Below are positions 3,122-59,738 of a DNA stretch of 64,000 nucleotides, one piece after another (the stretch's first letter is position 1; every line of letters begins with the position of its first letter). The stretch lies in contig JACOXH010000003.1 in the NCBI GenBank assembly GCA_016176415.1, forward strand, positions 12,419 to 76,418, in the 5' to 3' direction. This stretch comes from Candidatus Daviesbacteria bacterium. GTDB taxonomy: Bacteria > Patescibacteriota > Microgenomatia > Daviesbacterales > UBA10151. The translations under genes were made by a program, and so were the position numbers. The notes beneath the pieces are model-generated. The model saw only the letters and a program-made list of their open reading frames with translations, had not been told where the DNA came from and made no database searches.

Positions 3122-4539
3122 GCGAGCTCTTTTATTCTGTTTAATAAGTAATCTTTATTGTTTTTTTCAGCGTTTTCTAAAACTTCTTCAAAAAGTTTTT
3201 GTAAAATTTCACCAATTTTAGGACCGGATTTAATATTTAATACCTCCATTATATCATTACCGTTTACTTTTAAATCTGAAATAGAAAATGGTTTTTGTAA
3301 AACCTGTTTAATTCTTTCATTGAATTTTTCCATTCTCCAAGAGACCGCTCTTTGTGTGCCTCCCCCCAGTCTGTCACCTATTCTCACTGCCATCATATCC
3401 TCAATATTTTCCAGCCCCACGTTATTAATAAAACGCCTGATGGCAGAATCAGTTTGATTTTCATCTACTGTAAAAAGATGCCATCTGACTAATTTGTATA
3501 ATTTATCAGTTTGTTTTTTGGATAAATTAAATCTTTGGGCAATTTGTAAAACTAACCTTCCTCCGTAAACATCATGGTTGTAAAAGGTAACATTGCCATC
3601 GCTTTCAGTTTTGACAGTTTGCACTTTGCCGATATCGTGTAAAAGTGCAGCTAATCTGACTAGGGAATTTTTTGATGGAGTATGCTGTAAAGTCATCAGA
3701 GAGTGTTCTCCTATATCGTAAACTCTGTCATGCTTGGGTCCTTGCTGCACAATACCAAAACATCTTTCCAGCTCAGGTAAAATAATTTGCAATATTCCTG
3801 CCTCCCTTAATTTGTTGATACCCTCAAGAGGGTTCTCAGCTGATAAAATTTTAAATAACTCATTTCTTACCCTTTCTTTTGCAATTTCCTCAATAAGTCC
3901 TGCATTTTCTTTTATTGCTTCAAAAGTTTTAATTTCTATCTCAAACTTTAATTGAGTAGCAATCCTTATTGCTCTTATCAACCTTAAGGCATCTTCTTTA
4001 AACCGATCATTGGGATTTCCAACAGTGCGAATGATTTTATCATGTATGTCTTTTTCTCCATGATAAGGATCTATGAGAGTCAAGTCGCTAGAATCTAGAG
4101 TCAAAGAGTTTATTTTCCTAGACTCTTGACTCTTGACTCTTGACTCTATACCCAAAGCAATAGCATTAATAGTAAAATCCCGTCTGGCTAAATCCTCTTC
4201 AATTTTATCAGTCCAGCCAACCTGGGCAGGGTGACGGAAATCTTTATAGTCACCCTCCTTCCTCATGGTAGTGACTTCGAAAACTTCCACCTCGGGGGAG
4301 TCAAAGCCCACCCCCGAGGTGTTCTTCGTCGGTATTCCCACAGTGCCGAATTTATTGTCGTAAAAGCCTTCAGGGATAATTTTTAAAATTTCCTCTGGTT
4401 TGGCATCAGTAGTAAAGTCCCAGTCGTTAACTTCTTTACCCATTAAAATGTCTCTGACTGCCCCTCCGACAATGTAAATTTGAAAACCGGCTTTTTGAAA
4501 CTTATTTAAAATATCTTCTACTTCTTTAGGTAAGTGCAT
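3118..4539 (-). CDS. cca: CCA tRNA nucleotidyltransferase / poly(A) polymerase family with HD domain; carries two repeat insertions
   Basis: VGGAVRD, DWDFTT, DLARRDFTINA, EDALRLIRA and LLHDIGK motifs. Confidence 0.9.
   Translation of the reverse strand: MHLPKEVEDILNKFQKAGFQIYIVGGAVRDILMGKEVNDWDFTTDAKPEEILKIIPEGFYDNKFGTVGIPTKNTSGVGFDSPEVEVFEVTTMRKEGDYKDFRHPAQVGWTDKIEEDLARRDFTINAIALGIESRVKSQESRKINSLTLDSSDLTLIDPYHGEKDIHDKIIRTVGNPNDRFKEDALRLIRAIRIATQLKFEIEIKTFEAIKENAGLIEEIAKERVRNELFKILSAENPLEGINKLREAGILQIILPELERCFGIVQQGPKHDRVYDIGEHSLMTLQHTPSKNSLVRLAALLHDIGKVQTVKTESDGNVTFYNHDVYGGRLVLQIAQRFNLSKKQTDKLYKLVRWHLFTVDENQTDSAIRRFINNVGLENIEDMMAVRIGDRLGGGTQRAVSWRMEKFNERIKQVLQKPFSISDLKVNGNDIMEVLNIKSGPKIGEILQKLFEEVLENAEKNNKDYLLNRIKELA
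4076..4147. repeat. Heptamer tandem repeat (GACTCTT)n with degenerate inverted partners, in-frame inside cca
   Basis: gactctt x3 plus gactct at 4121-4147 and agagtcaa copies at about 4077-4109; encodes ESRVKSQESRKINSLTLDSSDLTL. Confidence 0.75.
4283..4321 (+). repeat. REPIN-like 34-bp hairpin (family A, 4288-4321), in-frame inside cca
   Basis: CACCTCGGGGG-AGTCAAAGCCCA-CCCCCGAGGTG; 4282-4298 is the exact reverse complement of 59007-59023 beside the RAYT gene. Confidence 0.85.
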
Positions 4540-4546
4540 ATATTTA

Positions 4547-4587
4547 TGGATCCCATAACGAGTATGGGATGACAGTTACACTGTCAT
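4547..4587 (-). repeat. GTCAT-tagged palindromic REP-like element between cca and recJ
   Basis: Minus strand TGTCATCCCATACTCGTTATGGGATCCA, followed on the plus strand by ATGACAG-ttaca-CTGTCAT. Confidence 0.55.
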
Positions 4588-4605
4588 TTTACCCCGTAGC
4601 TGTCT

Positions 4606-6282
4606 ATGATACAATGCAGCTTGCAAAGGAAACTAAAAGTGAAGTGGAGAATACTGCCAAAAAAGTCAGATAGTTTAACAGAGCAGCTTTTGATAAACCG
4701 CGGTATAAAGAGCGAAAAGGAAATAAAACAATTTTTTAACCCCAGGATTTCAGATTTTGAAAAAGATTTACAAATCCCCGGTACTTCAAAAGCGCATAAA
4801 AGAATTCTGGAGGCAATAAAAAAAGAGGAACTGATAGCAGTGTATGGAGATTATGATGTAGACGGGATTTGCGCCTCGGCAATTTTGTATAAGGGTTTAA
4901 CATCAATTGGGGCAAAAGTCCTACCGTATATTCCTCACAGAGATAAAGAAGGGTATGGACTTTCTGTTACCGGACTTGATTCCATTAAACTGTCAGGCGC
5001 AAAGTTGGTAATTACTGTAGATAACGGGATTGTAGCAGTAGAACAGGCAAAATATGCTAAAAGTTTAGGACTGGATTTAATTATTACAGATCATCATATC
5101 CCGGGTGATCAGGAGCCTGATGCTTATGCAATAGTTCATTCAACAAAAATGTGTGGGGCCTCTGTGGCATGGTGTTTAACCCGTGACCTTATTAAAGAAG
5201 ATTTATCAGAGGAGCTTTTACAATTTGCAGCCATAGCTACAGTTTGTGATCTTTTGCCTTTGGTGGGTTTAGGCAGGGGATTCGTCACAGAAGGTCTTAA
5301 GGTTTTAAGAAGCACCACTAATCCCGGGATATTGGCACTTTTGAATGAAGCGGGTGTATCGGTTGGAAATATCAGCTCTTTTGAAATAGGTTTTATACTA
5401 GGTCCAAGACTTAATGCTATGGGCAGAATGGAGCATGCCATAGATTCTCTGCGTCTGCTTTGCACCAAAGATCCGGTTAAGGCAAGAAGTTTGGCAAAGC
5501 TTTTGTGTAATACCAACGCCAGTCGTCAAAAATTAACAACAGAGGCTTTGGAAGAAGCTAAAGAGATGGTTAAAAAAGACAGCAAAATTCATATTTTATA
5601 CTCAAAAAACTGGTCAGCAGGAATCATAGGACTCGTGGCAGGGAGGGTTTGTGAAGAATACTCGCTACCTGCAATTGCCATTTCAGTAGGGGAAGAAATT
5701 TCCAAAGGTTCGGCCCGTTCTGTTGACGGTATCAATATTGTGGAAGTAATCAGGAAGCATGCTGATATTTTAATTGATGTAGGAGGACACAAAGGGGCAG
5801 CAGGATTTTCTATTTTAAGCAAACATTTAGAAACTTTTAAAAAAAGATTAGAGCAGATAGTTTTGACAGTGCCGGAAGAGAAGGTTTTGGAAATTGATGC
5901 TGAGGTTTATAGCAGTCAGTTAAATAAAACTTTAATAAAAGAGCTGGAGAAATTTGAGCCTTTTGGACTGGATAACAGAAGGCCTGTGTTTGTTTCATTT
6001 AACATGAAAGTATCAGATATCAGAACTGTGGGGAATGGAAAACATTTGAAATTTAAAATTTCTTCCTGTCATTCTGAGCACATTTGCTTCGCTCAGTGTA
6101 AACTCCGCGAAGAATCTAATTATATTGATGCTATAGCATTTGGCATGGGAGAGTGGGAAAAGCTGCTTAAGACAGGACAGATGATAGATTTAGCTTTCAA
6201 TATAGAACTTGATACTTATGGTGGATTTGAAAAAGTGCAATTAAAAGTTAAGGACTTGAGAGTGGGGCAGTTTGGAGTGTAG
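4606..6282 (+). CDS. recJ: ssDNA exonuclease RecJ
   Basis: YGDYDVDG, ITVDNG, TDHH, GSARS and GGHKGAAG DHH/DHHA1 motifs plus C-terminal OB fold; exact start uncertain. Confidence 0.95.
   Translation: MIQCSLQRKLKVKWRILPKKSDSLTEQLLINRGIKSEKEIKQFFNPRISDFEKDLQIPGTSKAHKRILEAIKKEELIAVYGDYDVDGICASAILYKGLTSIGAKVLPYIPHRDKEGYGLSVTGLDSIKLSGAKLVITVDNGIVAVEQAKYAKSLGLDLIITDHHIPGDQEPDAYAIVHSTKMCGASVAWCLTRDLIKEDLSEELLQFAAIATVCDLLPLVGLGRGFVTEGLKVLRSTTNPGILALLNEAGVSVGNISSFEIGFILGPRLNAMGRMEHAIDSLRLLCTKDPVKARSLAKLLCNTNASRQKLTTEALEEAKEMVKKDSKIHILYSKNWSAGIIGLVAGRVCEEYSLPAIAISVGEEISKGSARSVDGINIVEVIRKHADILIDVGGHKGAAGFSILSKHLETFKKRLEQIVLTVPEEKVLEIDAEVYSSQLNKTLIKELEKFEPFGLDNRRPVFVSFNMKVSDIRTVGNGKHLKFKISSCHSEHICFAQCKLREESNYIDAIAFGMGEWEKLLKTGQMIDLAFNIELDTYGGFEKVQLKVKDLRVGQFGV
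6067..6117 (+). repeat. Family B palindromic element with a nested insert, in-frame in recJ
   Basis: TGTCATTCTGAGC-[acatttgcttcgctcagtgtaaactcc]-GCGAAGAATCT; encodes CHSEHICFAQCKLREES between KHLKFKI and IDAIAFG. Confidence 0.8.
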
Positions 6283-7923
6283 TATGACAGTTTGTGCAAA
6301 AGCTGCTTCTTCAGGAGTTTGTGAAGACGCTGCTCTTTTGGGTAATCGCAGATCTAAAATAAGCGGACGGGGAGTTGAAAGCATTTCGTCGCAGGCGAGC
6401 GCTAAATCGTAGCAGGTACGCACCGTCCTTCCTTCTATGCCGTAAGTTGCCCCTAAAGCCGGAAAGTCAGGGTTTGTAAGGTCAGTTAACGAAGAATCAA
6501 CTCCAAATTCTCTGATCATGCCGTAGCCGCAGTCATTGTAGATTACTATTTTAACAGGTAGTTGGTATTGCATTATTGTGCCTAATTCCTGTATATTCAT
6601 CTGGAAGCCTCCGTCTCCCATTATCGCTATAATTCTTCTATCCGGAGAAGCAATTTGTGCACCTATGGCAGCCGGTAGAGCAAAGCCCATTGTTCCCATG
6701 CCTCCTGTGGTAATAAAGCTGCCGGGTCGTCTGAATCTGCCATACCGCGCAACTGACATTTGATGTGAGCCGGCATCGGATACAATGGTGTCGGTATCCA
6801 AAGTGTTTTCAAAAAGTAAGTTGGTTGCATCAGTTATTGTCAGATCATTATCTCCGGCTAACATTTTTCTGGTTTCCGTCATCGAAGAACTGTCGCTAAT
6901 ATAATTATCGAGCGGTTTTTCTATTGCCTGTTCTGCAAGGACAGGGAGTGCCAGTGCTAAATCTGCTCTGATCGTTAATCTGTCTCCCCTTCTTCTGTTA
7001 AGTCGGTTTGAGTCAATATCAATACGGATAATATCAGCCAGTCTGGTAGAATCAAGAATTTTTCCACTGACCCGATCGTCAAATTTCATACCAAGAGCTA
7101 AAATTACATCAGCTTCCTGCGCCAGTAAATTTGCTACCGGTCGTCCGTGTGTTCCTATCATGCCGACAAACAAAGGATGGTCAGAAGGTAAAGCAGATAA
7201 TCCATGAAGTGTGCTGGCTACACGAATTTGAGTTTTTTCAGTAAGCCTCCTAAGGTCAGAGACAGCTCCGGATAATAAGACTCCCTGACCTGTAATAATT
7301 AAAGGATTTTGGGCGTCATGCAGTATTTGGGCTGCTTCTTTCAGTTGTGCGTGTATTTCAGGAGTAAGTTCCGGTTTATCTGCTTTGGGAGGTATTTCTT
7401 TTTCAGGGAATAAAGTTTCGTGTATCTGCAGATCTTTTGGTATATCAATAAGTACCGGTCCCGGACGGCCATTGGTTGCAATTGTAAAAGCTTTATCCAA
7501 AACATAGGGAATTTCTTCCGGAATTTTAATCTGATAGCTCCATTTTGTGATATGACCTGACATTTCTACAATAGGAGCTTCCTGAAATGCTTCAGTTCCA
7601 AGTAACGATGTTGGTACCTGACCACAGATTACAATGATAGGTGTTGAGTCCCATTGTGCATCGGCAATTGCTGTTAGAGTATTAATTGCACCAGGACCTG
7701 AAGTTACCAATCCTACCCCCACTTTTCTTGCTTCTCGGGCATACCCTGAAAGGGCATGACCAAGTCCCTGCTCATGGCGGAATAAAAAACGATTTATCCT
7801 GTTGGATATCAAAGCCTCGCAGATAGGCAAATTTGCTGCTCCGGGTATCAGAAAAACATCTTTTATGTCGTGTTCCTTAAGAGTGTTTACTAAAGCTTCG
7901 GCTCCCGTTAGAGTGCGCCCCAA
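6241..7923 (-). CDS. ilvB: Acetolactate synthase large subunit-like TPP enzyme
   Basis: LTGAEALV, RHEQG, TSGPGA, GRPGPVLIDIPKD, GMGTMGFALPAAIGA and GDGGFQMNIQEL motifs. Confidence 0.85.
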   Translation of the reverse strand: MGRTLTGAEALVNTLKEHDIKDVFLIPGAANLPICEALISNRINRFLFRHEQGLGHALSGYAREARKVGVGLVTSGPGAINTLTAIADAQWDSTPIIVICGQVPTSLLGTEAFQEAPIVEMSGHITKWSYQIKIPEEIPYVLDKAFTIATNGRPGPVLIDIPKDLQIHETLFPEKEIPPKADKPELTPEIHAQLKEAAQILHDAQNPLIITGQGVLLSGAVSDLRRLTEKTQIRVASTLHGLSALPSDHPLFVGMIGTHGRPVANLLAQEADVILALGMKFDDRVSGKILDSTRLADIIRIDIDSNRLNRRRGDRLTIRADLALALPVLAEQAIEKPLDNYISDSSSMTETRKMLAGDNDLTITDATNLLFENTLDTDTIVSDAGSHQMSVARYGRFRRPGSFITTGGMGTMGFALPAAIGAQIASPDRRIIAIMGDGGFQMNIQELGTIMQYQLPVKIVIYNDCGYGMIREFGVDSSLTDLTNPDFPALGATYGIEGRTVRTCYDLALACDEMLSTPRPLILDLRLPKRAASSQTPEEAAFAQTVILHSKLPHSQVLNF

Positions 7924-8048
7924 TGTTTCTTGTGTAATATTAAACTCCTTAGCAGTTAGGACAAACGGGCATTAAAGCGGCAAAAGCGGAATCTCTTTTC
8001 TCGGCAAGATTAAGAAGAAAACAAAGTTTTTTGAACCTTGTAATATAC

Positions 8049-8078
8049 ATTCTACTTACAAAATTATCTATTTGTCAA
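8049..8078 (-). promoter_or_regulatory. Sigma70 promoter for ilvB
   Basis: TTGACA (8078-8073), 18-nt spacer, TAGAAT (8054-8049). Confidence 0.65.
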
Positions 8079-8233
8079 TAGATAATCTCACAAAAATTCT
8101 ATCTTGCTAGAGGTGTTACTGATGGGTTATTTAATGTCATAAGCAGCTAGTGTTTCCGGACTGTCAACGTGTATAGATGTACACCTATGGTACCTGGTCT
8201 TAGTTCTATGCTTTTCATTGTAAACAGCCCCTT

Positions 8234-8617
8234 TCAAATTAATGTATGTACATTATTAATTGGATTTATTGTATTAATAAAGCAACTAACAGCTTGCGCA
8301 GAATTAACACGATCTTCTAATTTAGCAATCATTTTTGATAAGGCTCTGCCTGTCTTTCTTGAAGGATTTTCTGTAACAGAAGCAGTTTTTATAGCAACTT
8401 TAGATACTAAATCAGGATTAACATGATAATTTTGTCTCTGATCTGCTACTAAGGTAGCGATGAGTTTGCCCAATTTTCGATCATGAAATCGCTCTATAGG
8501 GGATAGAGCAACAATATGAACTTCTTTGTGCGTTTCTTCCTTTTCAATAGCAGTAGGACAGGTTGTAACTACCTTTAAAGGTGAAACTGTTTCTCGTTCT
8601 AATGCTAAAACTGGCAT
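8234..8617 (-). CDS. Hypothetical protein downstream of the Leu-rich attenuator
   Basis: 127-aa ORF with a GAGG ribosome-binding site directly after the terminator. Confidence 0.6.
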   Translation of the reverse strand: MPVLALERETVSPLKVVTTCPTAIEKEETHKEVHIVALSPIERFHDRKLGKLIATLVADQRQNYHVNPDLVSKVAIKTASVTENPSRKTGRALSKMIAKLEDRVNSAQAVSCFINTINPINNVHTLI

Positions 8618-8628
8618 ATTTTTTCCTC

Positions 8629-8654
8629 AAAAAAACCTCCCGTTTGGGAGGCTT
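8629..8654 (-). terminator. Attenuator terminator (Leu leader)
   Basis: AAGCCTCCC-AAAC-GGGAGGTTTTTTT. Confidence 0.85.
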
Positions 8655-8680
8655 AAAATTCCTTTCTTTTTAGATTAATT

Positions 8681-8785
8681 TTATCTAAAAAGGCCTCCCA
8701 GAGTTGCTCCTAAAAGGAGCACTGTAAGGAGGACTAAACCTAAATTTTCTACTCTTTTTAAATCAATACTAATTACTTTTGACAT
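8681..8785 (-). CDS. Leu-rich attenuator leader peptide, 34 aa (not in ORF track)
   Basis: MSKVISIDLKRVENLGLVLLTVLLLGATLGGLFR*; 10 Leu; contains the antiterminator segment TGGGAGGC. Confidence 0.8.
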   Translation of the reverse strand: MSKVISIDLKRVENLGLVLLTVLLLGATLGGLFR

Positions 8786-8814
8786 ATAATTTCCCCAAAG
8801 GGTTTAAGATTATT

Positions 8815-8843
8815 ATTCTAAGTACAGTTTAACACTTTGTCAA
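8815..8843 (-). promoter_or_regulatory. Sigma70 promoter for the Leu leader
   Basis: TTGACA (8843-8838), 17-nt spacer, TAGAAT (8820-8815). Confidence 0.8.
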
Positions 8844-8851
8844 TGTTTATT

Positions 8852-9934: not shown

Positions 9935-9956
9935 AAATTTATAACCTGTTAACCAT

Positions 9957-9982
9957 AAAAAAACCTCCCAGTCCGGGAGGTT
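9957..9982 (-). terminator. Attenuator terminator (aromatic leader)
   Basis: AACCTCCC-GGACT-GGGAGGTTTTTTT. Confidence 0.85.
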
Positions 9983-10010
9983 ATAATTGGTTGAAACCTT
10001 TAAAAGGTTT

Positions 10011-10079
10011 TTATCCCAACAAGCCTCCCTCCTTTCGGAAGGTAAAGCTAAACCAAAAATAATTCTTTACGAGATTCAT
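10011..10079 (-). CDS. Aromatic amino-acid attenuator leader peptide, 22 aa (not in ORF track)
   Basis: MNLVKNYFWFSFTFRKEGGLLG*; YFWFSFTF control codons upstream of DAHP synthase. Confidence 0.85.
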   Translation of the reverse strand: MNLVKNYFWFSFTFRKEGGLLG

Positions 10080-10086
10080 AAAAAGT

Positions 10087-10116
10087 ACTTTACCATCGAA
10101 GATGGCATCTTGTCAA
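10087..10116 (-). promoter_or_regulatory. Promoter for the aromatic leader (probably leaderless transcript)
   Basis: TTGACA (10116-10111), 18-nt spacer ending TGG, TAAAGT (10092-10087), 7 nt to ATG. Confidence 0.65.
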
Positions 10117-10148
10117 TATTCTTACTCTGCTGATATGATGCAGAAAGT

Positions 10149-11492
10149 ATGGAGAGAACATTAATTTTAGACTGTAATGAGAAAATTGATCAAACAGTAC
10201 ATATTTGTGGTTTTGTGCAAGTCAGGCGCGATCACGGAAAAATTGTATTTTTAGACATAGCTGACAGATCTGCTGTTATTCAGGTGGTAATATCGTCAGA
10301 TGCAATCCACCTCGAAGGAGTCAAAGCCCACCTTCGAGGTGATATTAGGCCGCAGGATGTTGTCTGTATAACAGGAAAAGTTAATAAACGCCCCGAACAC
10401 TTAATAAATAAAAATATCCCTACAGGCGGTATTGAGATTTTTGCTGAGAGTATTGAAGTTTTGTCAAAAGCATCAGAATTACCTTTTGACATGGGCGGAA
10501 AGGATCTGGATCTGCAGCTTCCCACTTTGCTGGATTACCGTTCTTTAACTTTGCGTCACCCAAAAATAAAATCAATTTTTAAAGTGCAGTCTGCAATTTT
10601 AGAAGGTTTTAGAAAAGCAGTAAAAGAGATTGGGTGTACTGAAATTGTAGTGCCCACTATTGTGGCAGGTTCTACAGAAGGAGGGGCAGAAGTGTTTAAA
10701 GTAGATTATTTTGAACACAAAGCATATTTATCCCAAAGCCCGCAACTTTATAAACAAATGTTGATACCGGTATTGGAAAGAGTGTTTACCATTGCCAAAG
10801 CATACAGAGCAGAACCTTCAGTCACAACCAGACATTTAACAGAGGTAACTCAAATGGATGTGGAAATTGGATTTACCAACTTTGAGGAACTATTGGATAT
10901 TTTGGAAAATACTGCCACAAATATGTTGGAGTTTTGCCAAAAAGAATGCGAAGATATTTTATCTGAATTTGGAGTGGAAAAAATTAGTATTGGAAAAATT
11001 CCCAGACTTACTTTAAGAGAAGCACAAGAGTTAATTTTAAAAGAGTTTGGCCGTGACAACAGAAAAGAGAAAGATTTAACACCGCAAGATGAAATTGATC
11101 TTTGTAAGTGGGCCAAAGAAAAACACGACAGTGATTTTGTGACGGTGACTCATTTTCCAACTAATGCCAAGCCTTTTTATACTATGCCTGACCCCAAAAA
11201 TCCTGAATATTCTCTAAGTTATGATTTGCTTTTCAGGGGGGTTGAGGTAATGAGTGGTAGTCAAAGGATTAATGATTATGGGCAGCTGGTAGATTCTATT
11301 AAAGGAAGGGGCATGGATCCGGATAGTTTTGAGATGTATCTTCAGGCTTTTAAATACGGCATGCCTCCTGAAGGAGGATTTTCTTTCGGTTTGGAAAGAG
11401 TAACAATGCATGTATTAAATCTTGCTAATATCAGAGAAGCTTCACTTTTTCCCAGAGATATGGAAAGAGTAGATACTAGATTAAGTAAGTGA
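10149..11492 (+). CDS. aspS: Aspartate--tRNA(Asp/Asn) ligase, short archaeal-like non-discriminating type
   Basis: OB fold RDHGKIVFLD; EGGAEVF, LSQSPQLYKQM, YRAEPS, SGSQRI and GMPPEGGFSFGLER motifs. Confidence 0.92.
   Translation: MERTLILDCNEKIDQTVHICGFVQVRRDHGKIVFLDIADRSAVIQVVISSDAIHLEGVKAHLRGDIRPQDVVCITGKVNKRPEHLINKNIPTGGIEIFAESIEVLSKASELPFDMGGKDLDLQLPTLLDYRSLTLRHPKIKSIFKVQSAILEGFRKAVKEIGCTEIVVPTIVAGSTEGGAEVFKVDYFEHKAYLSQSPQLYKQMLIPVLERVFTIAKAYRAEPSVTTRHLTEVTQMDVEIGFTNFEELLDILENTATNMLEFCQKECEDILSEFGVEKISIGKIPRLTLREAQELILKEFGRDNRKEKDLTPQDEIDLCKWAKEKHDSDFVTVTHFPTNAKPFYTMPDPKNPEYSLSYDLLFRGVEVMSGSQRINDYGQLVDSIKGRGMDPDSFEMYLQAFKYGMPPEGGFSFGLERVTMHVLNLANIREASLFPRDMERVDTRLSK
10308..10341 (+). repeat. 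REPIN-like 34-bp hairpin (family A), in-frame in aspS
   Basis: CACCTCGAAGG-AGTCAAAGCCCA-CCTTCGAGGTG; same 12-nt loop as the cca copy. Confidence 0.85.
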
Positions 11493-11498
11493 TTTTTC

Positions 11499-15216: not shown

Positions 15217-15287
15217 TGCGGGATCATCTAACGGTAGGATACATGCCTCTGGAGCATGGCATCTTGGTTCAAATCCAAGTCCCGCAA
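15217..15287 (+). tRNA. tRNA-Gln (anticodon CTG), CCA not encoded
   Basis: Acceptor stem TGCGGGA/TCCCGCA, anticodon arm CATGC-ct-CTG-ga-GCATG, T arm CTTGG-TTCAAAT-CCAAG; TATAAT upstream. Confidence 0.93.
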
Positions 15288-15352: not shown

Positions 15353-15385
15353 TTATAACCCTGATAAATGTACTATACTTACTTA

Positions 15386-15691
15386 ATGAGTAGGTCGAAG
15401 GGCTGTTATACTGTTTATATTCTTAGGACCTCTGCTAATACACTGTATATTGGTCAAACTAATAATTTAGAAAAAAGGCTAAAAGAACATCAAAATAAAT
15501 CTTCCAAATCTGCCAAATATATTAAATATTTTGATTCTTTTCGATTGGTTTACTCAGAACAATACCCTACCAGAATTGAAACAATGAGAAGAGAATATCA
15601 ACTTAAACATTGGTCAAAAGCTAAAAAAGAAGCATTAATTTCCGGTAACGTGCAATTAATAAAATTGCCAAAACTGCAACAGCCACAATAA
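15386..15691 (+). CDS. Small GIY-YIG nuclease (UPF0213-like)
   Basis: YTVYILR..NTLYIGQTNNLEKRLKEH..REYQLKHWSKAKKEALI; start placed at MSRSKG, 6 nt after TATACT. Confidence 0.88.
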   Translation: MSRSKGCYTVYILRTSANTLYIGQTNNLEKRLKEHQNKSSKSAKYIKYFDSFRLVYSEQYPTRIETMRREYQLKHWSKAKKEALISGNVQLIKLPKLQQPQ

Positions 15692-21985: not shown

Positions 21986-22105
21986 CCCACCCTCCAGGTA
22001 TTATAACTTCACACCCGCCAAAGGCGGGCAAGCCTGGGGAGTTTTATTAATAGGACAACTCATTCGAGTCTGAGCGACGAGGTCGCTAGACCTCAGAGTC
22101 GAAGA
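21986..22105. repeat. Cluster of degenerate palindromic elements at the island's right end
   Basis: cccgccaaaggcggg hairpin and gtctgagcga-[cgaggtcgctagacctcag]-agtcgaagac (family B with an insert). Confidence 0.55.
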
Positions 22106-47382: not shown

Positions 47383-47383
47383 A

Positions 47384-51310: not shown

Positions 51311-51373
51311 AATAGGGTCAAAGTTTATAGGGTAAAATTTTTAATGTCAATGGTTAAGAAAAATTCTTGTAAA

Positions 51374-51407
51374 TATCACACCTCGGAGGTGTGATAGAGG
51401 TGTGATA
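51374..51407. repeat. Family A-related palindrome with a duplicated right half
   Basis: TATCACACCTC-G-GAGGTGTGATA plus a second GAGGTGTGATA. Confidence 0.65.
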
Positions 51408-51416
51408 AAAAGCAAG

Positions 51417-51722
51417 ATGGAAAATAAACAAATAGTAAGGTATGCTGAAAGTATGTTGGGATTTACATTAAAAAGATTTTTAATTACTTTAGGGGCAAGT
51501 GTAGGGGTATGGATTATATCTGCTATTATTCAGGCGTACTTAACTTTTGGGAAATATATAGGCACATTTTCAAGCGGTTGTCAGGTGACTGGATATCCAA
51601 TAGATGTGTGCGCATTAAGAGGTCCAGATATTCCTGCAATTTTAATCATTATTATTAATATCGTTTTTTGGTTTTGGGTTTTACATTTTATATTTAATTT
51701 GTTTAACAAACGCGCTAAATAA
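51417..51722 (+). CDS. Small two-TM protein
   Basis: Two hydrophobic segments around CQVTGYPIDVC. Confidence 0.6.
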   Translation: MENKQIVRYAESMLGFTLKRFLITLGASVGVWIISAIIQAYLTFGKYIGTFSSGCQVTGYPIDVCALRGPDIPAILIIIINIVFWFWVLHFIFNLFNKRAK

Positions 51723-54644
51723 ACTAAAAGAAGCAAAAGATGCTACGCTCCCTGAAACTATAAGCAGCCCTCCAAGAATTTCTTTATAAGAATAACCAGT
51801 ATTTTGGTTTATTGATAATTGTTTTTGTTGATCTAGAAATCCCTCTTTATTTATCTGATCAGAAATTTCATCAGGGTTTTTAAAAGTAATTCCCAAAATA
51901 TCAGATTGAGAAAGTATAGAATCAGGAGATTGGTTTGTTTTACTGCCAATGTTCACCCCGGAGGTGTTAACCTGGTTACTGCTTGCGCCCACCTCCGGGG
52001 TGGTGCTGATGGAAGATGGTGCCGGAGTAGGTGATAGAGCAATTTGAATAGTAAAGGTTTGAGGGATTTCCTCATTTCCTAATTTGTCTATTGCCTTAAT
52101 TTGTAATGTAGTAGTACCGGGAGTTGAGATGGTAAAAGGTTCTGAATAAGTTTGAACAGTTTGGCCGTTATCTAAACTGTATTCAATTTTTAATATTCCT
52201 GCTTCTGTATCGCTGGCAGTTAGAGTAATGGTAACGGGTCCTGTATAAATACCTGAAGAGTTTTTAGTACCGGAGATTTGTATAGAAGTAGAAGGAGGGG
52301 TTTGATCTGTAGCTGCAGAACCGGTTACTTCACTGGTAGAAATAATAGTGGTGGTAGTTGAGCCCTGATAAAGATTTAGAGAAGGAGAGGTATCTAAAGA
52401 TGGATCAAGGTCAAATTCTATTTTATCTGCAAAAGAAATACTCAGATCTTTATAAAGAGTAGTTTTGGAGATTTTATCTTCTCTGTAAGTTCTTTTTTTA
52501 AGATTGGTAGTTTTAGAGCTGTTTGAAGGGTTTTTCCGGGTAGCTTTAACTTTTACTTTGGAAGCTTTCTTTTTTACAAAAGCATGTTTGGTATTACCGG
52601 AAGTAGTACAAGTTACGTCAGGAATATTTTCTTCGATTTCGCCATTATCATTTAATCCACAGTGGCGGTTTTGATCGTCATATAAATCAAGTTCTCCGTC
52701 ATCCAAAGTTAATTGCTCGCCTTCCAAACTTATTTTTTCGCTCTTAACCTGAACAGGAATAGCTAAATTATCATCATTTAAGATTCCTCTTACAGCTGCC
52801 ATTGCAGGACCGCTGCTATTAACAAGATCACTGTGCTTTTGTTCTACATAGTAAATTTGAGAAGCTCCGGAAATATCTAAAGAATCATTTTTTAAAGAAG
52901 CGCTATAAAGGGGGACAGTGCCGTCACCGTTAATAAAAATTTCATCTCTTTTTGTAATGAGATTAATTGGCCATGTGATCCACCAAGTTTCGTGAATTTG
53001 TCCTAAGGTAGGTTGTGATGTGCCAACTATTTCATATGCAATAACACCATTTGCTTGGTTAAGGGTGACATCAAGACTGTGAAATTGTTCTGCGATCCCA
53101 AAAGTAGTCATGTTGTAATTAAGATTTGTTAAAAGTGTTTTTATCTGATTAAAATTTAGGGAACCTGTAACGTTGTTATTATCAATATCGCGATCATCTT
53201 TAAAAGGATATAATATTTCATTCCTTGAGTTATCATAAAAATCAAAGTATTTGTTTGACGGTAAAAGTTGAAAAGCGCTCGAAAAATTTTGGAAAAGATC
53301 TTTAACTTCTGATGATGGAATACCGAGATAAAAATCTCCCAATATTTGCCTACCTAGAGGCTTGCCATACATCAGAGCTTTTGTAGCATCTACTGCTCCC
53401 AAATGGGGAACACCTAGTTCAATTAATTTATTTACCTTTGTAGCCTTTGAAGAATCTGAAATATAATACCTGGCTACTAAACCGCCCATGGAGTGAACAA
53501 CTAAATTTACCTGTGATTGTCCGGAGGCAATCCTGGCTGATTCTATTAAAGCATCTAAGCTGTCTTTTGTGCTTCTGACATCTTTTCTCCAGTCGTATGG
53601 AAAAACAAAAAAGTTTGTGCCCTTGTTATATCCCATTTCAGCAAAAAAGGAATCAATTTGCGAATAACCATCAGAAACTAAAGCTCCTGTTAAAGATAAA
53701 TCTGCTTCTGAAGTTACCCCATCAGATTTTAATTTCAATACATCAAAATAATCATCATTACCCAAGGCAGCTGCCTCATTTGTGTTAACCCAAATTTTTT
53801 CATCAGCTGTATATGCATGAGAATATGTTCCCCCGTGTCCATTATCAGCAGACCACACAATATCTTGAGTAGCTTTCATTTCTGATCCACCAATTCCGGG
53901 GATAAAAATTACAGGAAGTCTGGGCGGAGATGGTGGAGGAGAGTTGTTGTTTAAAACAAAGTATAAATCATTTTTATAGTAACCAAAAATATTACAACCA
54001 AAACTTGCAGTTTGTGAGTTCCAAATATAAGAGGAGGCATTACACACTCCATTATCAAAAGCATATCTGACTCCTCCTCCGGTGAAATAATCATTAGAGG
54101 TGCCGCTATAATTTGCAGTAGCAAGCTTCATTCTTTTGCCTCCCCATTGAGCTGCATTTGCATTTGTTAAAAGAATTAAATATCTGTGACCGAAAATAAA
54201 TTCATAATTTCTGCAGGAAAAATCTATGGTAACGTCTTCATACCCTGCAGGAACACCTGTAGTGGTAAATGTTAGACCTGTCAGTGGATCTGAGGCATTT
54301 GAGACACAGGGAATAGTGTATGAATTATTGTTGTCTTTATCGTAAATTTTAGTATTTAAACCAGCGAAATCAAACTGATCTATATTTGAAGCAGAAGTTG
54401 AAACCCTGAAAGTAAAATTTTCCAGTGTTCCTGAAAGGTTGTTTCCGAGTTCTTGAATTGCCTGCCAGACATTTAAAGTGGAATCGTATCCTTGTGTTTG
54501 TTCTGCTACAGAAACTGCATAAGATGGATGGGTGAAAGTCACAAAAACTCCTCCCAAAAGGGCAAACCCGAAAATTAGGGCAATTGGCAGTTTTTGATTC
54601 ACTTTTACTAAAATGATTGTTGATCGTGAAAAAGGGAAGCGCAA
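51681..54644 (-). CDS. Large surface alpha/beta-hydrolase (LCAT/lipase-like) with an Ig-like domain and C-terminal TM anchor
   Basis: PVIFIPGIGGS, FPYDWR, VHSMGG, GVPHLG and GDGTVPLYS motifs; AIDKLGNEE Ig-like repeat. Confidence 0.8.
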   Translation of the reverse strand: MRFPFSRSTIILVKVNQKLPIALIFGFALLGGVFVTFTHPSYAVSVAEQTQGYDSTLNVWQAIQELGNNLSGTLENFTFRVSTSASNIDQFDFAGLNTKIYDKDNNNSYTIPCVSNASDPLTGLTFTTTGVPAGYEDVTIDFSCRNYEFIFGHRYLILLTNANAAQWGGKRMKLATANYSGTSNDYFTGGGVRYAFDNGVCNASSYIWNSQTASFGCNIFGYYKNDLYFVLNNNSPPPSPPRLPVIFIPGIGGSEMKATQDIVWSADNGHGGTYSHAYTADEKIWVNTNEAAALGNDDYFDVLKLKSDGVTSEADLSLTGALVSDGYSQIDSFFAEMGYNKGTNFFVFPYDWRKDVRSTKDSLDALIESARIASGQSQVNLVVHSMGGLVARYYISDSSKATKVNKLIELGVPHLGAVDATKALMYGKPLGRQILGDFYLGIPSSEVKDLFQNFSSAFQLLPSNKYFDFYDNSRNEILYPFKDDRDIDNNNVTGSLNFNQIKTLLTNLNYNMTTFGIAEQFHSLDVTLNQANGVIAYEIVGTSQPTLGQIHETWWITWPINLITKRDEIFINGDGTVPLYSASLKNDSLDISGASQIYYVEQKHSDLVNSSGPAMAAVRGILNDDNLAIPVQVKSEKISLEGEQLTLDDGELDLYDDQNRHCGLNDNGEIEENIPDVTCTTSGNTKHAFVKKKASKVKVKATRKNPSNSSKTTNLKKRTYREDKISKTTLYKDLSISFADKIEFDLDPSLDTSPSLNLYQGSTTTTIISTSEVTGSAATDQTPPSTSIQISGTKNSSGIYTGPVTITLTASDTEAGILKIEYSLDNGQTVQTYSEPFTISTPGTTTLQIKAIDKLGNEEIPQTFTIQIALSPTPAPSSISTTPEVGASSNQVNTSGVNIGSKTNQSPDSILSQSDILGITFKNPDEISDQINKEGFLDQQKQLSINQNTGYSYKEILGGLLIVSGSVASFASFSLFSAFVKQIKYKM
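51954..52002. repeat. Family A inverted pair, in-frame in the 987-aa gene
   Basis: CACCCCGGAGGTG (51954-51966) ... CACCTCCGGGGTG (51990-52002). Confidence 0.75.
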
Positions 54645-54688
54645 GAGAGATTAAAGGTGATTTAAAGTAACAAACAAATACACAGGCC

Positions 54689-54722
54689 CACCTGGAAGGT
54701 GAGCTTTGGCTCCTTCCAGGTG
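54689..54722 (-). repeat. REPIN-like 34-bp hairpin (family A), intergenic, reverse orientation
   Basis: Minus strand CACCTGGAAGG-AGCCAAAGCTCA-CCTTCCAGGTG. Confidence 0.85.
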
Positions 54723-54769
54723 AACGGGAAGTCTTGCAAAAGAGGTTTGGGAAGTGATATAAAAGGGCA

Positions 54770-55465
54770 GTGTTTACCAATCAAAAAGTTTTGGGATTAG
54801 TTTTAATTTTATTTCTTTTGGGAACCGGAATTTATTTTGCTGTTTCAAAATTAAAAGCAGATGTGGATAGCGCTACTGCTTCACCTACCCCTTCTCCCTC
54901 ACCCTCTGCGCAGCTTAATTTCTTTGCCAGTCCTACCCCTAATGCCCAACAAACTCAAACCCAGGAACTGCCTCTTTCTAAAAACAAAAGACTGGATAAA
55001 TTCCCGGGGGTTTTACAACCTGAAGTTTTAAATGGTAAGCAGGCAGTAATTCAAACTACTAAAGGTTTAATATCTTTGGAAATTTATCCTGAAGCCACGA
55101 TGGCTGCTTCTAATTTTATCCTGCTTTCTGCTAATGGTTTTTATGACGGGTTAAAGTTTCACAGGGTGGAAGATTGGGTGGTGCAGGGGGGAGATCCGCA
55201 GGGGACTGGCAGGGGTGGCCCCGGGTACCAATTTCCTGATGAGCCTGTAAACAGAGAGTATACGAAGGGAATAGTAGCAATGGCTAACTCAGGTCCTGAT
55301 ACCAACGGTAGCCAGTTTTTTATTTTGAAAAAAGATACTCCGTTGCCTCCTAATTACACAATCTTTGGGAAAGTAATAGCTGGTCAGGAAGTGGTGGATA
55401 AATTAAATACTGGAGATGTGATGCAAAAAGTTGTAATTGGGGATCTTCAGCAAACCTCTCACTAA
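54770..55465 (+). CDS. Membrane-anchored cyclophilin-type peptidyl-prolyl isomerase
   Basis: FYDGLKFHRV, QGGDP and AMANSGPDTNGSQFF motifs. Confidence 0.92.
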   Translation: MFTNQKVLGLVLILFLLGTGIYFAVSKLKADVDSATASPTPSPSPSAQLNFFASPTPNAQQTQTQELPLSKNKRLDKFPGVLQPEVLNGKQAVIQTTKGLISLEIYPEATMAASNFILLSANGFYDGLKFHRVEDWVVQGGDPQGTGRGGPGYQFPDEPVNREYTKGIVAMANSGPDTNGSQFFILKKDTPLPPNYTIFGKVIAGQEVVDKLNTGDVMQKVVIGDLQQTSH

Positions 55466-55480
55466 AATCTTACTAAGATT

Positions 55481-55527
55481 ACACAATATATTGTATATTG
55501 ACACTTTAAGATATCAATATGTTATGT
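55481..55527. promoter_or_regulatory. Tandem NrdR boxes
   Basis: ACACAATATATTGTAT (55481) and TATCAATATGTTATGT (55512), 31 bp apart. Confidence 0.75.
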
Positions 55528-55541
55528 TAGAATGGTTGTAA

Positions 55542-55982
55542 ATGAAATGCCCCTTTTGCAACAGTACTTTAAGTAAGGTTATCGATAAAAGGTCAGTGGA
55601 AAAACGCGGCCAAATCAGAAGAAGGAGAGAGTGTTTAAAGTGTTTTAAACGCTACACTACTTATGAGATGTGCGCACAGCTGGAAATTTTAGTTATCAAA
55701 AAAGACGGCAGCAAACAACCATATATAAGAGAAAAACTGGAAGTTGGGTTGACGAAAGCTTTGGAAAAAAGGCCGGGGATTGACAAGGTTTGCATACTGC
55801 TTGATAGAATAGAAAGCCGGATCAGGACACGGGGACTAAGTGAGGTTGCCTCGCAAATGTTGGGTAAGTGGGTCTTGTCGGAACTTAAAAAGTTGGACCC
55901 GGTTGCCTATTTGCGTTTTGCCAGCGTCTACCGGACTTTTTCTGACCCGAAAGACTTTAAAAAAGAATTGGAGACATTATGA
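55542..55982 (+). CDS. nrdR: Transcriptional repressor NrdR
   Basis: MKCPFC, IRRRREC and VAYLRFASVY motifs. Confidence 0.95.
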   Translation: MKCPFCNSTLSKVIDKRSVEKRGQIRRRRECLKCFKRYTTYEMCAQLEILVIKKDGSKQPYIREKLEVGLTKALEKRPGIDKVCILLDRIESRIRTRGLSEVASQMLGKWVLSELKKLDPVAYLRFASVYRTFSDPKDFKKELETL

Positions 55983-58555
55983 AAAAAACAAAAGCCACAT
56001 TACAAGTTGTAACAGCGCCAAGAATCCAAAGAGGCAAGAAAACTAATGGTCAGGTCAAGCCCAATGGTTTGGATCATAACAGCAGGACTTTTGAAACAAG
56101 GTTTATTCCCCGCTACAAAACTATTCCTCAGATGCCAGAGGGTTTGCCTGAACCTACTTTTTCTGAATCCTCCAATAAGATTTTATCTGAAAGATATCTT
56201 TTAAAGGGTGGCAATTTAGAAGTGGTAGAAAGCGTGGCTGAAAGATTTTGGCACATTGCTTATGATATTGCCTCCGGTGACTTTGACTTTAAAGTTTCTC
56301 AAAGCCAGGTTTTTGATATGGCCAAAGATTTTTATACCATGATGGTCAAACAGGAATTTTTACCCAATTCTCCTACAATCATGAATGCCGGTAAGCAAAA
56401 CGGTTTGCAGTATTCTGCCTGTTTTGTGTTGCCTGTTGGGGATTCTTTGCCGGAAATTTTTGATACCGTAAAGTATGCAGCCTTAATTCATCAAACAGGA
56501 GGAGGCACAGGTTTTTCTTTTTCCCGTCTTCGTTCTGCAGGCTCAATTGTTAACACAACCGGCGGCGTGGCTTCCGGGCCAGTTTCATTTTTACGGGTTT
56601 TTAATGCAGCCACTGAATCAATAAAGCAGGGGGGTACCAGAAGGGGGGCTAATATGGGTATTTTAAGAATAGACCACCCTGATGTTTTGGAATTTATCCG
56701 CTGTAAAGCAGAACTGGACGATTTAAACAAGCCAGTATACGAGAGAATTGCCCCGCTTTTATCTTCTGATGAAGCCAGGGATTTTGTAAAAACTTTGCTT
56801 TTGGACAAGCAAATATCCAATTTTAATATTTCTGTGGCTATAACTAATAAATTTATGGAAGCTTTGGCAAAGGAAGAAGATTATGAACTGATCAGTCCTC
56901 ATGATGGCAGCGTGGTTGGTAAATTAAATTCAAAAGAGGTATTTGATGAAATAGTGGAGAGGGCATGGAAAACAGGCGATCCTGGTTTGATTTTTATTGA
57001 CAGGATTAACAACTCCCCTGCCAATCCTGTACCTGGTTTAGAGCATATTGAAGCCACAAATCCATGTGGCGAACAGCCACTTGCACCTTGGGATGCCTGT
57101 AATTTGGGTTCTATAAATTTAGGAAAATTTGTGCTGGCAGACGGGATGGATGTGGACTGGGAAAAGTTAAGACAAATAACCCGTCAGGCTGTGCGCTTTT
57201 TGGATAATGTGGTACAAGCAAATCCTTTTACTCTAAAACAAATTTATGATCAAGTGCATAAAAACAGAAGGATTGGCTTAGGAGTAATGGGGTTTGCTGA
57301 TATGCTTTTTAAGTTAAAAATCCCTTACAACTCTGATGCTGCTTTGGAACTGGCTGCCAGAATAATGAAGTTTATTAATGAAGAAGGACACAAAAAATCA
57401 GAAGAGTTGGCTGAAGAAAAAGGCGCTTTTCCTAACTGGATTCACTCTATTTATGCCAAAGGCAACCCAATCAGAAATTCCACTATCACCACCATTGCTC
57501 CCACAGGTACTATTTCCATTATCGGTGATTGTTCTTCAGGGATTGAGCCTGTATTTGCTTTAGCTTACATCCACAGAGCCAAAGCTAAGGGTGACCAGTA
57601 CAGGACTTTAACTATTGCCAATCAGACATTTACAGATATTGCCAAAAGGGAAAGTTTTTATTCAGACGACCTGGCAGCTAAAGTATTGGAGCATGGTTCA
57701 GTCAGCGGGGTTGACGGCGTTCCCCAGGAATGGCAAAAGGTGTTTGTGACAGCTCCTGAAATTGATCCTGTTTGGCACGTTAAGATGCAGGCGGCTTTTC
57801 AACAATTTACTGATAACGGGGTTTCCAAAACCATTAACTTACCAAACAGCGCTACCCGTGACGATGTCAGAGATTCTTATATGCTGGCATGGGAAACAGG
57901 CTGTAATGGCATCACTATTTACCGTGATGGTTCCAAAAGTACTCAAGTATTAAATGTTTCTTCATCTTTGGATAGTCAGGTTGCTCAAGATGATTCGCAA
58001 GCGCCGGTAGCAGAAAGGCCAATGATTTTAAGAGGCAGGACTTATAAAATTTCTACCCCTGTAGGTGAAGCTTTTATTACTGTTAACCGTGATGAGCAGG
58101 ATCAGCCTTTTGAGGTATTCGTAACAGTGGGTCGGGCAGGAATGCACACTATGGCAGATGCAGAAGCCATGGGCAGGTTAGTTTCACTTTCTTTAAGACT
58201 GGCCAGAGGTGCCAAAGAAACAGATCCCAAAGCTGTGGCTTTGAAGATTGTAGACCAGCTCAAAGGAATAGGGGGAGCTTCATATGTGGGATTTGGTAAA
58301 AACAGGGTGATGAGTCTGGCTGACGCTATTGCCAAGGTTTTGGCAGAAGATTTGTCTTTAGGGTCTCAAGGGGAGATAATTGAAACAATACCTTTGAATT
58401 TAACTATGAACGGAAACAGTAATGATCCAGAGCCTTCAAGCTATGGTTCTCACTCCAAAACCAATGCTGATCTTTGTCCTGAATGCGGCAGCGCTTCCTT
58501 TGTAATGGAAGAAGGATGTAAGAAATGTCATAGCTGTGGATACAGCATGTGCTGA
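55979..58555 (+). CDS. nrdJ: Class II (adenosylcobalamin-dependent) ribonucleotide reductase
   Basis: PNSPT, SACFV, RRGANM, TNPCGEQ, ACNLGS, IAPTGT and YRDGS motifs; C-terminal TSCPD region and Zn ribbon. Confidence 0.92.
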
Positions 58556-58950
58556 CATTTCTTGCGACAGCAGGCTGTCTTAAGAAGTGTCATTCGTGCG
58601 GGTACTCGATGTGTTAACCAAGAATTGGCAGGGGGAAACCTTTCCTTTAGAAACTTAAGGTAAATTTCAATATCTTCTCCGTGATCAAATGCCATTTCTT
58701 CTTTCGCGGGAAGATTGTCTAATTCAAACCATCTTAGCTCCTTTACTTCCCGTTTTACGGCTTGTTCCAGGTTTTCATCTCTGTCAAAAAAACCTCCAAG
58801 CAACGCCCATTTTCCTGATTCAAGAATAGGTTGACCATTCAGAGCCCCCCTTTTGCCTAAAAGTATTTTGCTATCTTTTATTACTATTGCATTAACGGTG
58901 ATATGTTTTGATGAGGCTTTATTTTTATTTTCAAAATGACATGTAATCAT
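58528..58950 (-). pseudogene. NUDIX hydrolase with internal deletion and 3' frameshift
   Basis: Nudix box GGFFDRDENLEQAVKREVKE is cut directly into LRWF; one extra C in TTTCCCCC hides FPLPILG*. Confidence 0.65.
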
Positions 58951-58999
58951 AGATATATTTTATCACTCTCTACTGTTGACTAACCCGACGTGCAGCTAC

Positions 59000-59738
59000 A
59001 CTTCCACCCCCGAGGTGGAAGTTAGGTGGAAGTTAATCTTCGCCATCTAAGAGCTGGTGTTTAATTAATTCCAATTCCTGCGCATAGCTAATTTGGTCGT
59101 CAGTAAACTTTTTATAATCTGCAACAGATTTAAAAAAATTAAGTATTTCTTCCTTTGTACATACTCCTTTACCATTCAAATATTCATTGTAAGATGACCA
59201 TTCATAATCCTCTGGTTTCTTGGTCAGAAACGAAGAAACAGAATTTAAGTGGATATATCTTGATACATGGACTAATTGTTCGTCAGATTCTATTAAGACA
59301 GCTTTAAATTGTCCCTGCAATAGAGGGCCAACTCTATTAAATTTAGTATTATAAAATTTAGTATAGCTATTGGTAAGCTTGCTAATAAATTCGCTTATAC
59401 CACCTTCTTTCAGTTGTTTTATCAGGAAATGAAAATGGTTAGGCATTAAGCAGTAACAGACGATGTCAACTATTTTTTTATTAGGATCAGGCTCGAATGA
59501 TTTATATTGGATAAAGTTTGAAAATTTCGGTTTAGGCCCTTCTAAGCGATAATAATTAATTGCCTGTAAAAATCGTGTATATGTTCTTCTGTTTTCATAT
59601 ATTCTTCTTTTTTCCACTCCACGGTTGTAAATGTGATAAAACTGACCGTTAATTAAAGGAATAATTCTTGCTGGCATAGATTTAGAATAAATAAAAATTA
59701 CCGAGGTGTCAATACACTTTCACCCCCGAGGTGGAAGT
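59000..59738 (-). mobile_element. RAYT locus: tyrosine transposase flanked by REP palindromes
   Basis: ACTTYCACCCCCGAGGTGGAAGT at 59000-59022 and 59716-59738, with partial copies at 59024-59032 and 59701-59708. Confidence 0.85.
59033..59677 (-). CDS. REP-associated tyrosine transposase (Y1 HUH family)
   Basis: YHIYNRG, YCLMPNHFHFLI (HUH), SRYIHLN (catalytic Tyr) and YEWSSY motifs. Confidence 0.9.
   Translation of the reverse strand: MPARIIPLINGQFYHIYNRGVEKRRIYENRRTYTRFLQAINYYRLEGPKPKFSNFIQYKSFEPDPNKKIVDIVCYCLMPNHFHFLIKQLKEGGISEFISKLTNSYTKFYNTKFNRVGPLLQGQFKAVLIESDEQLVHVSRYIHLNSVSSFLTKKPEDYEWSSYNEYLNGKGVCTKEEILNFFKSVADYKKFTDDQISYAQELELIKHQLLDGED

Follow-up and report, generated by a model that had tools for sequence, protein, structure and literature searches.

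In-frame hairpin doublets in core genes of Candidatus Daviesbacteria and a probable cognate Y1-HUH enzyme of the RAYT type

A 64,000-nucleotide stretch of a Candidatus Daviesbacteria genome (hereafter the window; G000:C1:12419-76418 of a 675,768-bp assembly that is 84% complete) harbors a gene for a Y1-HUH transposase bracketed by short palindromes, and inverted doublets of such a palindrome are read in frame within core genes of the same genome. We consider it probable, at odds of about two in three, that enzyme and doublets form a system of the type known from REPINs (doublets of repetitive extragenic palindromes, REPs, that form hairpins) and RAYTs (REP-associated tyrosine transposases), in which a clade of Y1-HUH enzymes would handle the doublets as single-stranded DNA (ssDNA), copying them, excising them and seating them anew. 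A preliminary description of the window had proposed a RAYT-REPIN system of the Candidate Phyla Radiation (CPR) with its own motif and no GTAG tag, and that part of the proposal is upheld here; the accompanying idea of fresh copies moved by this particular gene is not.

The repeat unit is a sharply bounded 13-mer, a palindrome of the form CACC-N5-GG(A/T)G, and was characterized in 114 doublets, 21 from the genome of the window (G000) and 93 from fetched loci of its relatives, mainly five element-rich genomes, all with at least four of the five N5 bases matching between the arms. N5 is identical between the arms in 106 of the 114 doublets, compared with a mean of 16 and a maximum of 28 for shuffled partners, and 18 distinct N5 sequences occur; the arms match each other, whereas the loop varies among doublets. 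This is the architecture of a REPIN, in which a short palindrome occurs twice in inverted orientation, the arms are conserved, the spacer varies and the whole forms a hairpin, and the folding z scores of the doublets range from -3.5 to -6.4. Lengths of 34, 37, 40, 43, 49, 52, 58 or 61 bp (1 mod 3) account for 102 of the 114 doublets, and both arms are therefore read in the same frame; since the arm-to-arm spacing is usually a multiple of three, a change between singlet and doublet or an exchange of loops preserves the frame. In the 58- and 61-mers, the loop of a 34-mer holds a further, nested repeat. The three-base period is no stronger in coding (91/102) than in intergenic (11/12) doublets. 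Among the 102 coding copies, of which some called at gene starts are probably false, 58 are read as HL.G, 36 as TS.V and 8 in the third frame.

Each of the 49 34-mers retains an A.A mismatch at position 12, though it is synonymous in the commonest frame, and the bases just outside the doublet stem are Watson-Crick paired at none of 39 independent sites, against 10 expected (p<1e-4); in singlets, unlike doublets, the foot is paired in 108 of 183. The bases 5' of the stem are variable, mostly two pyrimidines, and lack the GT[AG]G tag of canonical REPs, GTGG or GTAG being present only within the 3' arm of some singlets. A reading of the doublets as 'double-foot' GTAG REPs was rejected, as these tetranucleotides are oriented wrongly and are not conserved in doublets. 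The location differs from that of predominantly extragenic REPs as well: 102 of 114 doublets fall within open frames that span 100 codons or more, as do 1761 of 2000 random windows, and the coding rate of the doublets thus equals that of random windows and there is no extragenic bias.

A genome-wide count of CACC-N5-GGTG, the check suggested in the preliminary description, revealed 47 sites in the genome, compared with 1-9 for other spacer lengths (0-11) and 2-8 in five fourth-order Markov simulations; the motif is not due to chance, since its count exceeds both controls. With the form CACC-N5-GG(A/T)G, the genome holds 21 inverted doublets, 18 of them coding and three intergenic in the set of open reading frames (ORFs) used, one coding call being a 93-aa ORF without a family. 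Their hosts include cca, aspS, pheT, prfA, tsaD, tgt, murB, gapA and the mevalonate kinase gene, as well as recG, a tlyA-like gene and glycosyltransferase genes. The three 34-bp hairpins first described in the window were all confirmed with perfect 11-bp arms and a 12-nt loop, two of them in frame in cca and aspS as the ORFs bear out; the identity of 17 nt between the cca copy and the flank of the transposase gene was verified (4282-4298), and the variant pair reported in a 987-aa gene corresponds to an in-frame 49-mer. The third 34-mer lies outside genes, the 987-aa frame closing at 54650. An assembly artefact as the origin of the hairpins was rejected: the pattern recurs in relatives, and contigs from a public groundwater run, which may be the source sample, span the 51954 copy and the 54689 copy together with the gene with zero differences.

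The enzyme of the window matches Pfam Y1_Tnp, and its H81, H83 and Y141 are invariant in 66 homologues, as expected of an HUH motif and a catalytic tyrosine. Its best solved match is E. coli TnpA-REP (4ER8), with a profile E of 0.0025 and a fold E of 5e-7 (model pLDDT 92). The family consensus NHFH, LQG, YIHLNP, WSSY, present in the window protein with the forms LQ and YIHLNS, fits the motifs NH[YF]H, [WF]Q, Y[IV]HLNP and SS that Table 1 of PMC6006769 gives for TnpA-Y1 subclass 2.1, and by this signature the enzyme is classed as group-1/subclass-2.1-like. No helix-turn-helix (HTH) domain of Pfam was matched, and the model has short C-terminal helices. After the catalytic tyrosine, the window enzyme has a Ser at residue 146, a position at which Pro is nearly invariant in the family. 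The closest named relatives of the gene are mostly from Ca. Daviesbacteria and other records of the Microgenomates group, together with records deposited as uncultured Gammaproteobacteria. As is typical of RAYTs, the gene does not appear to be mobile: cobO adjoins it in 15 of the 15 closest loci (L001-L015) and nrdJ is nearby in 14, identical duplicates are lacking, and a search of 72,556 plasmid records gave one weak match, on a 2.6-Mb record.

The bracketing of the gene by palindromes, noted in the preliminary description, was confirmed as two copies of CACCCCCGAGGTG, each within a 38-bp direct repeat (84% identical). Folding of the upstream hairpin alone is weak (z -1.1 and -0.5), that of the downstream one stronger (z -3.1). 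The upstream hairpin abuts a TTGACA box, and TTGAC[AG] occurs within 75 nt upstream in 82 of the 115 homologue loci compared, which are mostly from Daviesbacteria. Three further paralogues in the genome have 36-58% identity, and one unrelated Y1 gene lacks the motif. Each of the four paralogues is bracketed by its own 13-mer variant, which is also dispersed in a few copies, some in genes; for example, TACCTCCGAGGTA has seven genomic copies, two of which flank its paralogue. In this the genes agree with those of RAYTs, whose flanking cognate palindromes recur elsewhere in the genome. The variant CAAACCNGGTTTG, tested across genomes, was uninformative at 0-4 copies per genome. A longer singlet family, TACC-TCCGA-GGTA, with conserved flanks belongs to the paralogue C8:597-1247; its copies lie at G000:C8:540, 1276, 12206, 34521 and 37208 and at C2:11411 and 28037, four of them in ORFs.

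Across the 115 loci, a 13-mer palindrome is present on both sides in 76 and on neither side in 22. The 76 double-flanked loci carry the same palindrome twice (53), a copy in which the N5 loop alone is flipped (12), or two different palindromes (11), so that the flanks are mostly direct hairpin repeats, not the inverted repeats of a TIRtron. The flank spacers resemble doublet loops, and one is nearly identical to the loop of the 37-mer class. The doublet pattern occurs in 32 of 60 relatives, including 27 of 35 within the family, and in 21 of 301 genomes phylum-wide, the reversed-pattern control being near zero. In distant genomes, three of four doublet pairs that lie one gene apart enclose a Y1-HUH homologue (G091, G070, G038), the fourth (G197) encloses other genes, and a further homologue (G354) lies between a doublet and a singlet. 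Two further cases stand beside these: a 43-bp doublet with the Daviesbacteria loop lies in a long ORF beside the doublet-flanked enzyme gene of G091, which belongs to another class (L255:2385-2427), and in a distant member of the Patescibacteria the 13-mer forms tandem direct arrays near contig ends (L261, G243:C5:64-292).

The co-occurrence of motif and enzyme across CPR genomes, a further check suggested at the outset, was examined in 13 motif-positive genomes (of 20 positives other than the own genome, seven being dropped because their arms are not complementary) and in 57 zero-hit genomes taken in handle order. The enzyme clade was found in 13/13 of the former and 13/57 of the latter (Fisher p 2e-7, a value overstated by kinship). 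Similarly, among the 60 relatives the pattern is present in 29 of 44 with the enzyme gene and in 3 of 16 without. When the best one or two enzyme loci per genome were fetched for motif reading, the 10 readable loci from motif-negative genomes had other palindromes or none.

Several results weigh against the proposed link. Three genomes in which the enzyme was not detected (G003, G011, G033) have 2-4 pattern matches each, 15 of the 44 enzyme-bearing relatives have none, and the CACC motif is present at 7 of 14 readable best enzyme loci of motif-positive genomes. For TCGAA and TGGAA, two arm types common in this genome, the assembly (84% complete) contains no cognate paralogue, and the enzyme scores 51 bits against the NCBIfam model REP_Tyr_transpos (NF047646), whose cut-off is 80. 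At none of the 115 loci does the 34-mer, with its invariant A.A mismatch, occur as a flank; with four paralogues each having its own variant, the earlier claim that the gene in the window moves these copies is not borne out. Lastly, no precise empty site or target duplication was found among relatives that are too diverged and show length differences of 21-60 bp, and no excision joint or empty-site strain variant was found in the contigs of five public runs, contigs being prone to drop rare variants. Joints at 85% likeness across copies in these contigs were traced to other organisms.

Comparison with orthologues, another check named in the preliminary description, placed the loops on alignments with the solved structures 1miv (CCA-adding enzyme) and 1n9w (aspartyl-tRNA synthetase, AspRS); a single-sequence AlphaFold model of AspRS (pLDDT 34) was not used. 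The cca copy adds 11 residues, matching an 11-residue gap against the B. stearothermophilus enzyme, and the AspRS alignment has a 12-residue gap. In cca, 14 of 30 orthologues have a turn of 8-9 residues, six carry the hairpin family, as four subtypes and one singlet, and in the remaining 10 the loop is longer and differently built, several times from unrelated repeats; in aspS, 14 of 26 orthologues are short and 12 have intact or decayed family members. Since empty orthologous sites exist, the loops are insertions. On a two-gene tree, filled sites are interspersed with empty ones, and sister pairs differ (FastTree, inner branches weak; G020 omitted as partial, along with genomes lacking either gene). 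A second loop of cca in the window, at 4109-4163, holds an in-frame heptamer tandem repeat that adds ~20 residues relative to 1miv, and in relatives is empty or filled by unrelated palindromic repeats.

The insertions were announced earlier as new peptide loops, yet they prove to be not fresh. The 102 coding copies concentrate in 50 sites, and of 60 copies from relatives with an orthologue in the window's genome, 36 align where that genome carries one or more 13-mers. G000 shares an unchanged 34-mer with G012 in cca and with G013 in aspS and prfA, although these species are only 37-40% identical at four-fold sites, and sister species differ by exactly one arm and loop (21 and 27 bp). Shared sites often differ in subtype, strand and frame, and the arms change in a compensated fashion also where this alters amino acids. 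When seven sites of G013 were compared with the sister G007, at loci chosen because G007 lacks a strict match, G007 carried the same doublet at one site, a singlet at two (in one case shorter by exactly 21 bp), a doublet of a variant motif at one and unrelated repeats at three, and more distant congeners had mostly shorter loops. By sequence comparison, the hairpin and not the peptide is conserved, because the same loops hold other subtypes, orientations, frames and unrelated repeats in sister species: the loops appear as old shared slots whose content turns over between species, in which the DNA hairpin and the slot persist and peptide, frame and strand do not.

We propose that the enzyme clade would be inherited vertically and that its flanking 13-mer would have given rise to the doublets. 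It is likely that these enzymes cleave and move doublets, and one or another of the paralogues may act on the 34-mer. The enzyme would bind the hairpin on ssDNA and cut near its foot, and what it recognizes may include the lack of pairing at the foot and the invariant mismatch; a bulge is required by E. coli TnpA-REP (PMC8266576). New elements would go preferentially into or beside existing hairpins, a preference suggested by the nested copies, and the older element would then be lost. Fold-back copying may re-match the arms after an N5 flip or a mutation, purifying selection would spare in-frame copies in tolerant loops alone, and through the upstream hairpin the enzyme may control the promoter of its own gene. 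The peptide that the copies encode is probably a by-product that the hosts tolerate.

The compensated arm differences to which the preliminary description drew attention are real, but selection for an RNA stem accounts for them no better than copying at the DNA level does. The perfect arms and N5 flips would also be expected if the enzyme merely binds its flank hairpins while doublets are made and homogenized by host processes such as template switching at quasi-palindromes and gene conversion among copies, an alternative consistent with the apparent age of the copies and with the lack of movement in the contigs of the five runs. Template switching, however, predicts longer stems and repaired mismatches, whereas the foot is paired at 0/39 sites and A.A kept in 49/49 34-mers, and the hairpin family tracks the enzyme clade, which makes this explanation unlikely. 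That the copies are kept for their peptide, or for an mRNA stem that tunes translation, is barely credible: they are indeed in frame in intact genes, and four of seven single mismatches in coding copies would be G.U in mRNA, but strand, frame and peptide vary at the same site between species, compensated changes alter amino acids (HPGG, HPEG and HLEG at one pheT site), and many orthologues lack the loop.

A different role for the host is conceivable, in which the hairpins are DNA tags selected in core genes and read by a domesticated nuclease, for example to sort or process incoming ssDNA. Analogous proposals exist for the NTS/Ssn and DUS repeats of Neisseria, transformation is affected by an ssDNA nuclease that has cognate hairpins (PMC11893778), and the fixed locus of the enzyme gene, the many host genes that are essential or handle DNA or RNA, and copies that remain letter-perfect at saturated synonymous divergence would all fit; with pattern matches varying from 0 to 43 within one genus, and the same slot empty or holding an unrelated repeat in a sister species, we regard such tags as quite improbable. 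A reading as DNA uptake sequences was set aside, the copy number being merely tens per genome. Alternatively, the doublets might derive from the enzyme flanks and be moved by another system, such as small Ssn-like GIY-YIG nucleases, of which the genome has two stand-alone genes (Table 1) and whose repeats occupy the same loops. At these sites doublets are replaced by other families of repeats, which are also found nested within the 58- and 61-mers, and the 34-mer is without a flanking enzyme locus; even so, the enclosure of a Y1-HUH homologue by three of four distant single-gene doublet pairs, and of another by a doublet and a singlet, makes this explanation very unlikely. The REPIN-RAYT-type reading is the one we retain.

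Table 1. Hairpins, host genes and the Y1-HUH locus in the window, with GIY-YIG genes of the genome.
Feature	Position	Strand	Remarks
CCA-adding enzyme gene (host)	3118-4539	-	intact ORF
34-bp doublet	4288-4321		in frame in cca, read on -, TSGVGFDSPEV, ~residues 73-84
Non-discriminating aspartate-tRNA ligase gene (host)	10149-11492	+	intact ORF
34-bp doublet	10308-10341		in frame in aspS, HLEGVKAHLRG, ~residues 54-65, OB-fold domain
tRNA	15217-15287		precedes first GIY-YIG gene
GIY-YIG genes, Ssn-like by size	15368-15691; G000:C15:25089-25301		hairpin repeats adjoin
Degenerate singlet	21988-22000		intergenic; variant type flanking paralogue G000:C8:46357-47028
Singlet, extended perfect stem	51374-51396		intergenic; 13-mer at 51379-51391; missed in the preliminary description
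987-aa LCAT-like ORF	51681-54644	-	
49-bp doublet, 13-bp arms	51954-52002		in frame, Ser/Thr-rich part of the 987-aa ORF
34-bp doublet, reversed	54689-54722		intergenic, divergent genes on either side
Downstream flank repeat	58985-59022		13-mer singlet hairpin 59005-59017, paired extended stem
Y1-HUH (RAYT/TIRYT-like) gene, 214 aa	59033-59677	-	HUH H81-F-H83, Y141 at catalytic position, SS 161-162
Putative sigma-70 promoter	59684-59712	-	TTGACA-17-TATTCT, overlaps half copy; consensus match only
Upstream flank repeat	59701-59738		13-mer 59721-59733, then (gene strand) TTGA and a half copy

Other observations concern the surroundings of these features. A further palindromic repeat family, seen in recJ at 6067-6117, has ~45 loose matches genome-wide, 27/45 of them in ORFs, and by eye only resembles the Ssn-related motifs of PMC11893778. 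A short ORF at 58528-58950, between nrdJ and the transposase gene, appears degraded at its end, and its start is presumably NUDIX-like. The Lon protease gene seems split into overlapping ORFs (60330-60806 and 60764-62650), the second with the AAA and protease domains. An Rfam scan of the window matched a tRNA and nothing else.

In-frame REPs are already known in other bacteria, including in tRNA synthetases (PMC3733652). To this the present analysis adds the three-base period, the rule of the unpaired foot, homologues with flanking doublets in distant families, and the turnover of slots between unrelated repeats. No paper on the motif or on REP-like repeats in CPR genes was found in open-access main texts, and the supplements of PMC3733652 and PMC6006769 could list related ones; a term search of PMC6006769 found no mention of Patescibacteria and 0 matches for 'Microgenomates'. 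In that paper, Quentin et al. report no REP-like sequences for subclass 2.1, and Bertels and Rainey confine REPIN association to RAYT groups 2 and 3. Our reading would thus extend REPIN-RAYT biology to Patescibacteria and to an enzyme group described as REPIN-free, and would overturn the 'extragenic' rule for this hairpin family. It would offer many natural enzyme-hairpin pairs with small sequence differences, by which the recognition, movement and host role of RAYTs become directly testable, and a worked example in which selfish DNA supplies variation to the loops of essential proteins; such inserts can also distort the annotation and phylogenies of CPR marker genes. We add, tentatively and as an idea that is doubtful at present, that core CPR proteins may carry long-lived 'hairpin slots', a few dozen loops that swap frame-preserving cassettes by structure-targeted exchange, and these cassettes may originate in a number of ssDNA-nuclease systems that are independent of one another, with Y1-HUH doublets, Ssn-like repeats and heptamer arrays among their products. 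If so, the group-1 RAYT, as a compact and tag-free enzyme, would rewrite essential proteins in frame at their loops, and the three-base periodicity would have evolved for life in a nearly all-coding genome.

In the REPIN-RAYT systems of Pseudomonas and enterobacteria (groups 2 and 3; PMC3116915; bioRxiv 10.1101/2021.07.10.451892; PMC8266576; structure PDB 4ER8), two palindromes of ~13-14 bp are likewise inverted around a variable spacer, singlets likewise occur, and a Y1-HUH gene likewise lies at a fixed locus with its cognate repeat, several paralogues having repeats of their own. Canonical REPs, in contrast, carry a GTAG tag and are predominantly extragenic, and the Daviesbacteria hairpins depart from them on both counts. 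With subclass 2.1 (RAYT group 1, TIRYT; PMC6006769), the enzyme shares NH[YF]H, Y[IV]HLNP-type and SS motifs and a distance of ~60 residues from HUH to Y. The Daviesbacteria flank GGTGTCAA resembles the terminal inverted repeat (TIR) consensus GGGGWSAS, and some TIR families of TIRYT are also dispersed as dimers (PMC6006769, PMC3733652, PMC5581495). TIRYT genes, however, have terminal inverted repeats whereas the Daviesbacteria flanks are mostly direct hairpin repeats. A C-terminal HTH-like domain is a mark of subclass 2.1, and in the window enzyme Pfam detects none, the model showing short helices at the C-terminus. Intragenic GTAG and CGTC REPs are translated in frame, including in tRNA synthetase and repair genes and presumably in loops, and the CGTC repeats had no associated enzyme (PMC3733652), whereas the Daviesbacteria hairpins have a candidate cognate enzyme; in-frame REPs also occur inside subclass 2.4 transposase genes (PMC6006769).

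The IS200/IS605 elements (IS608, ISDra2) likewise combine a Y1-HUH fold with direct-orientation hairpins at both ends of a single gene, and the window enzyme is closer to 4ER8 than to the TnpA of IS608 or ISDra2. Unlike these elements, the Daviesbacteria paralogues are diverged (36-58%) and not identical mobile copies, lie at a conserved locus and are near-absent from plasmids. Rickettsia palindromic elements are reportedly palindromic repeats translated in frame inside functional genes. Compared with these and with intragenic REPs, coding location is here the rule, and the same loops are used again and again, with content that changes from species to species.

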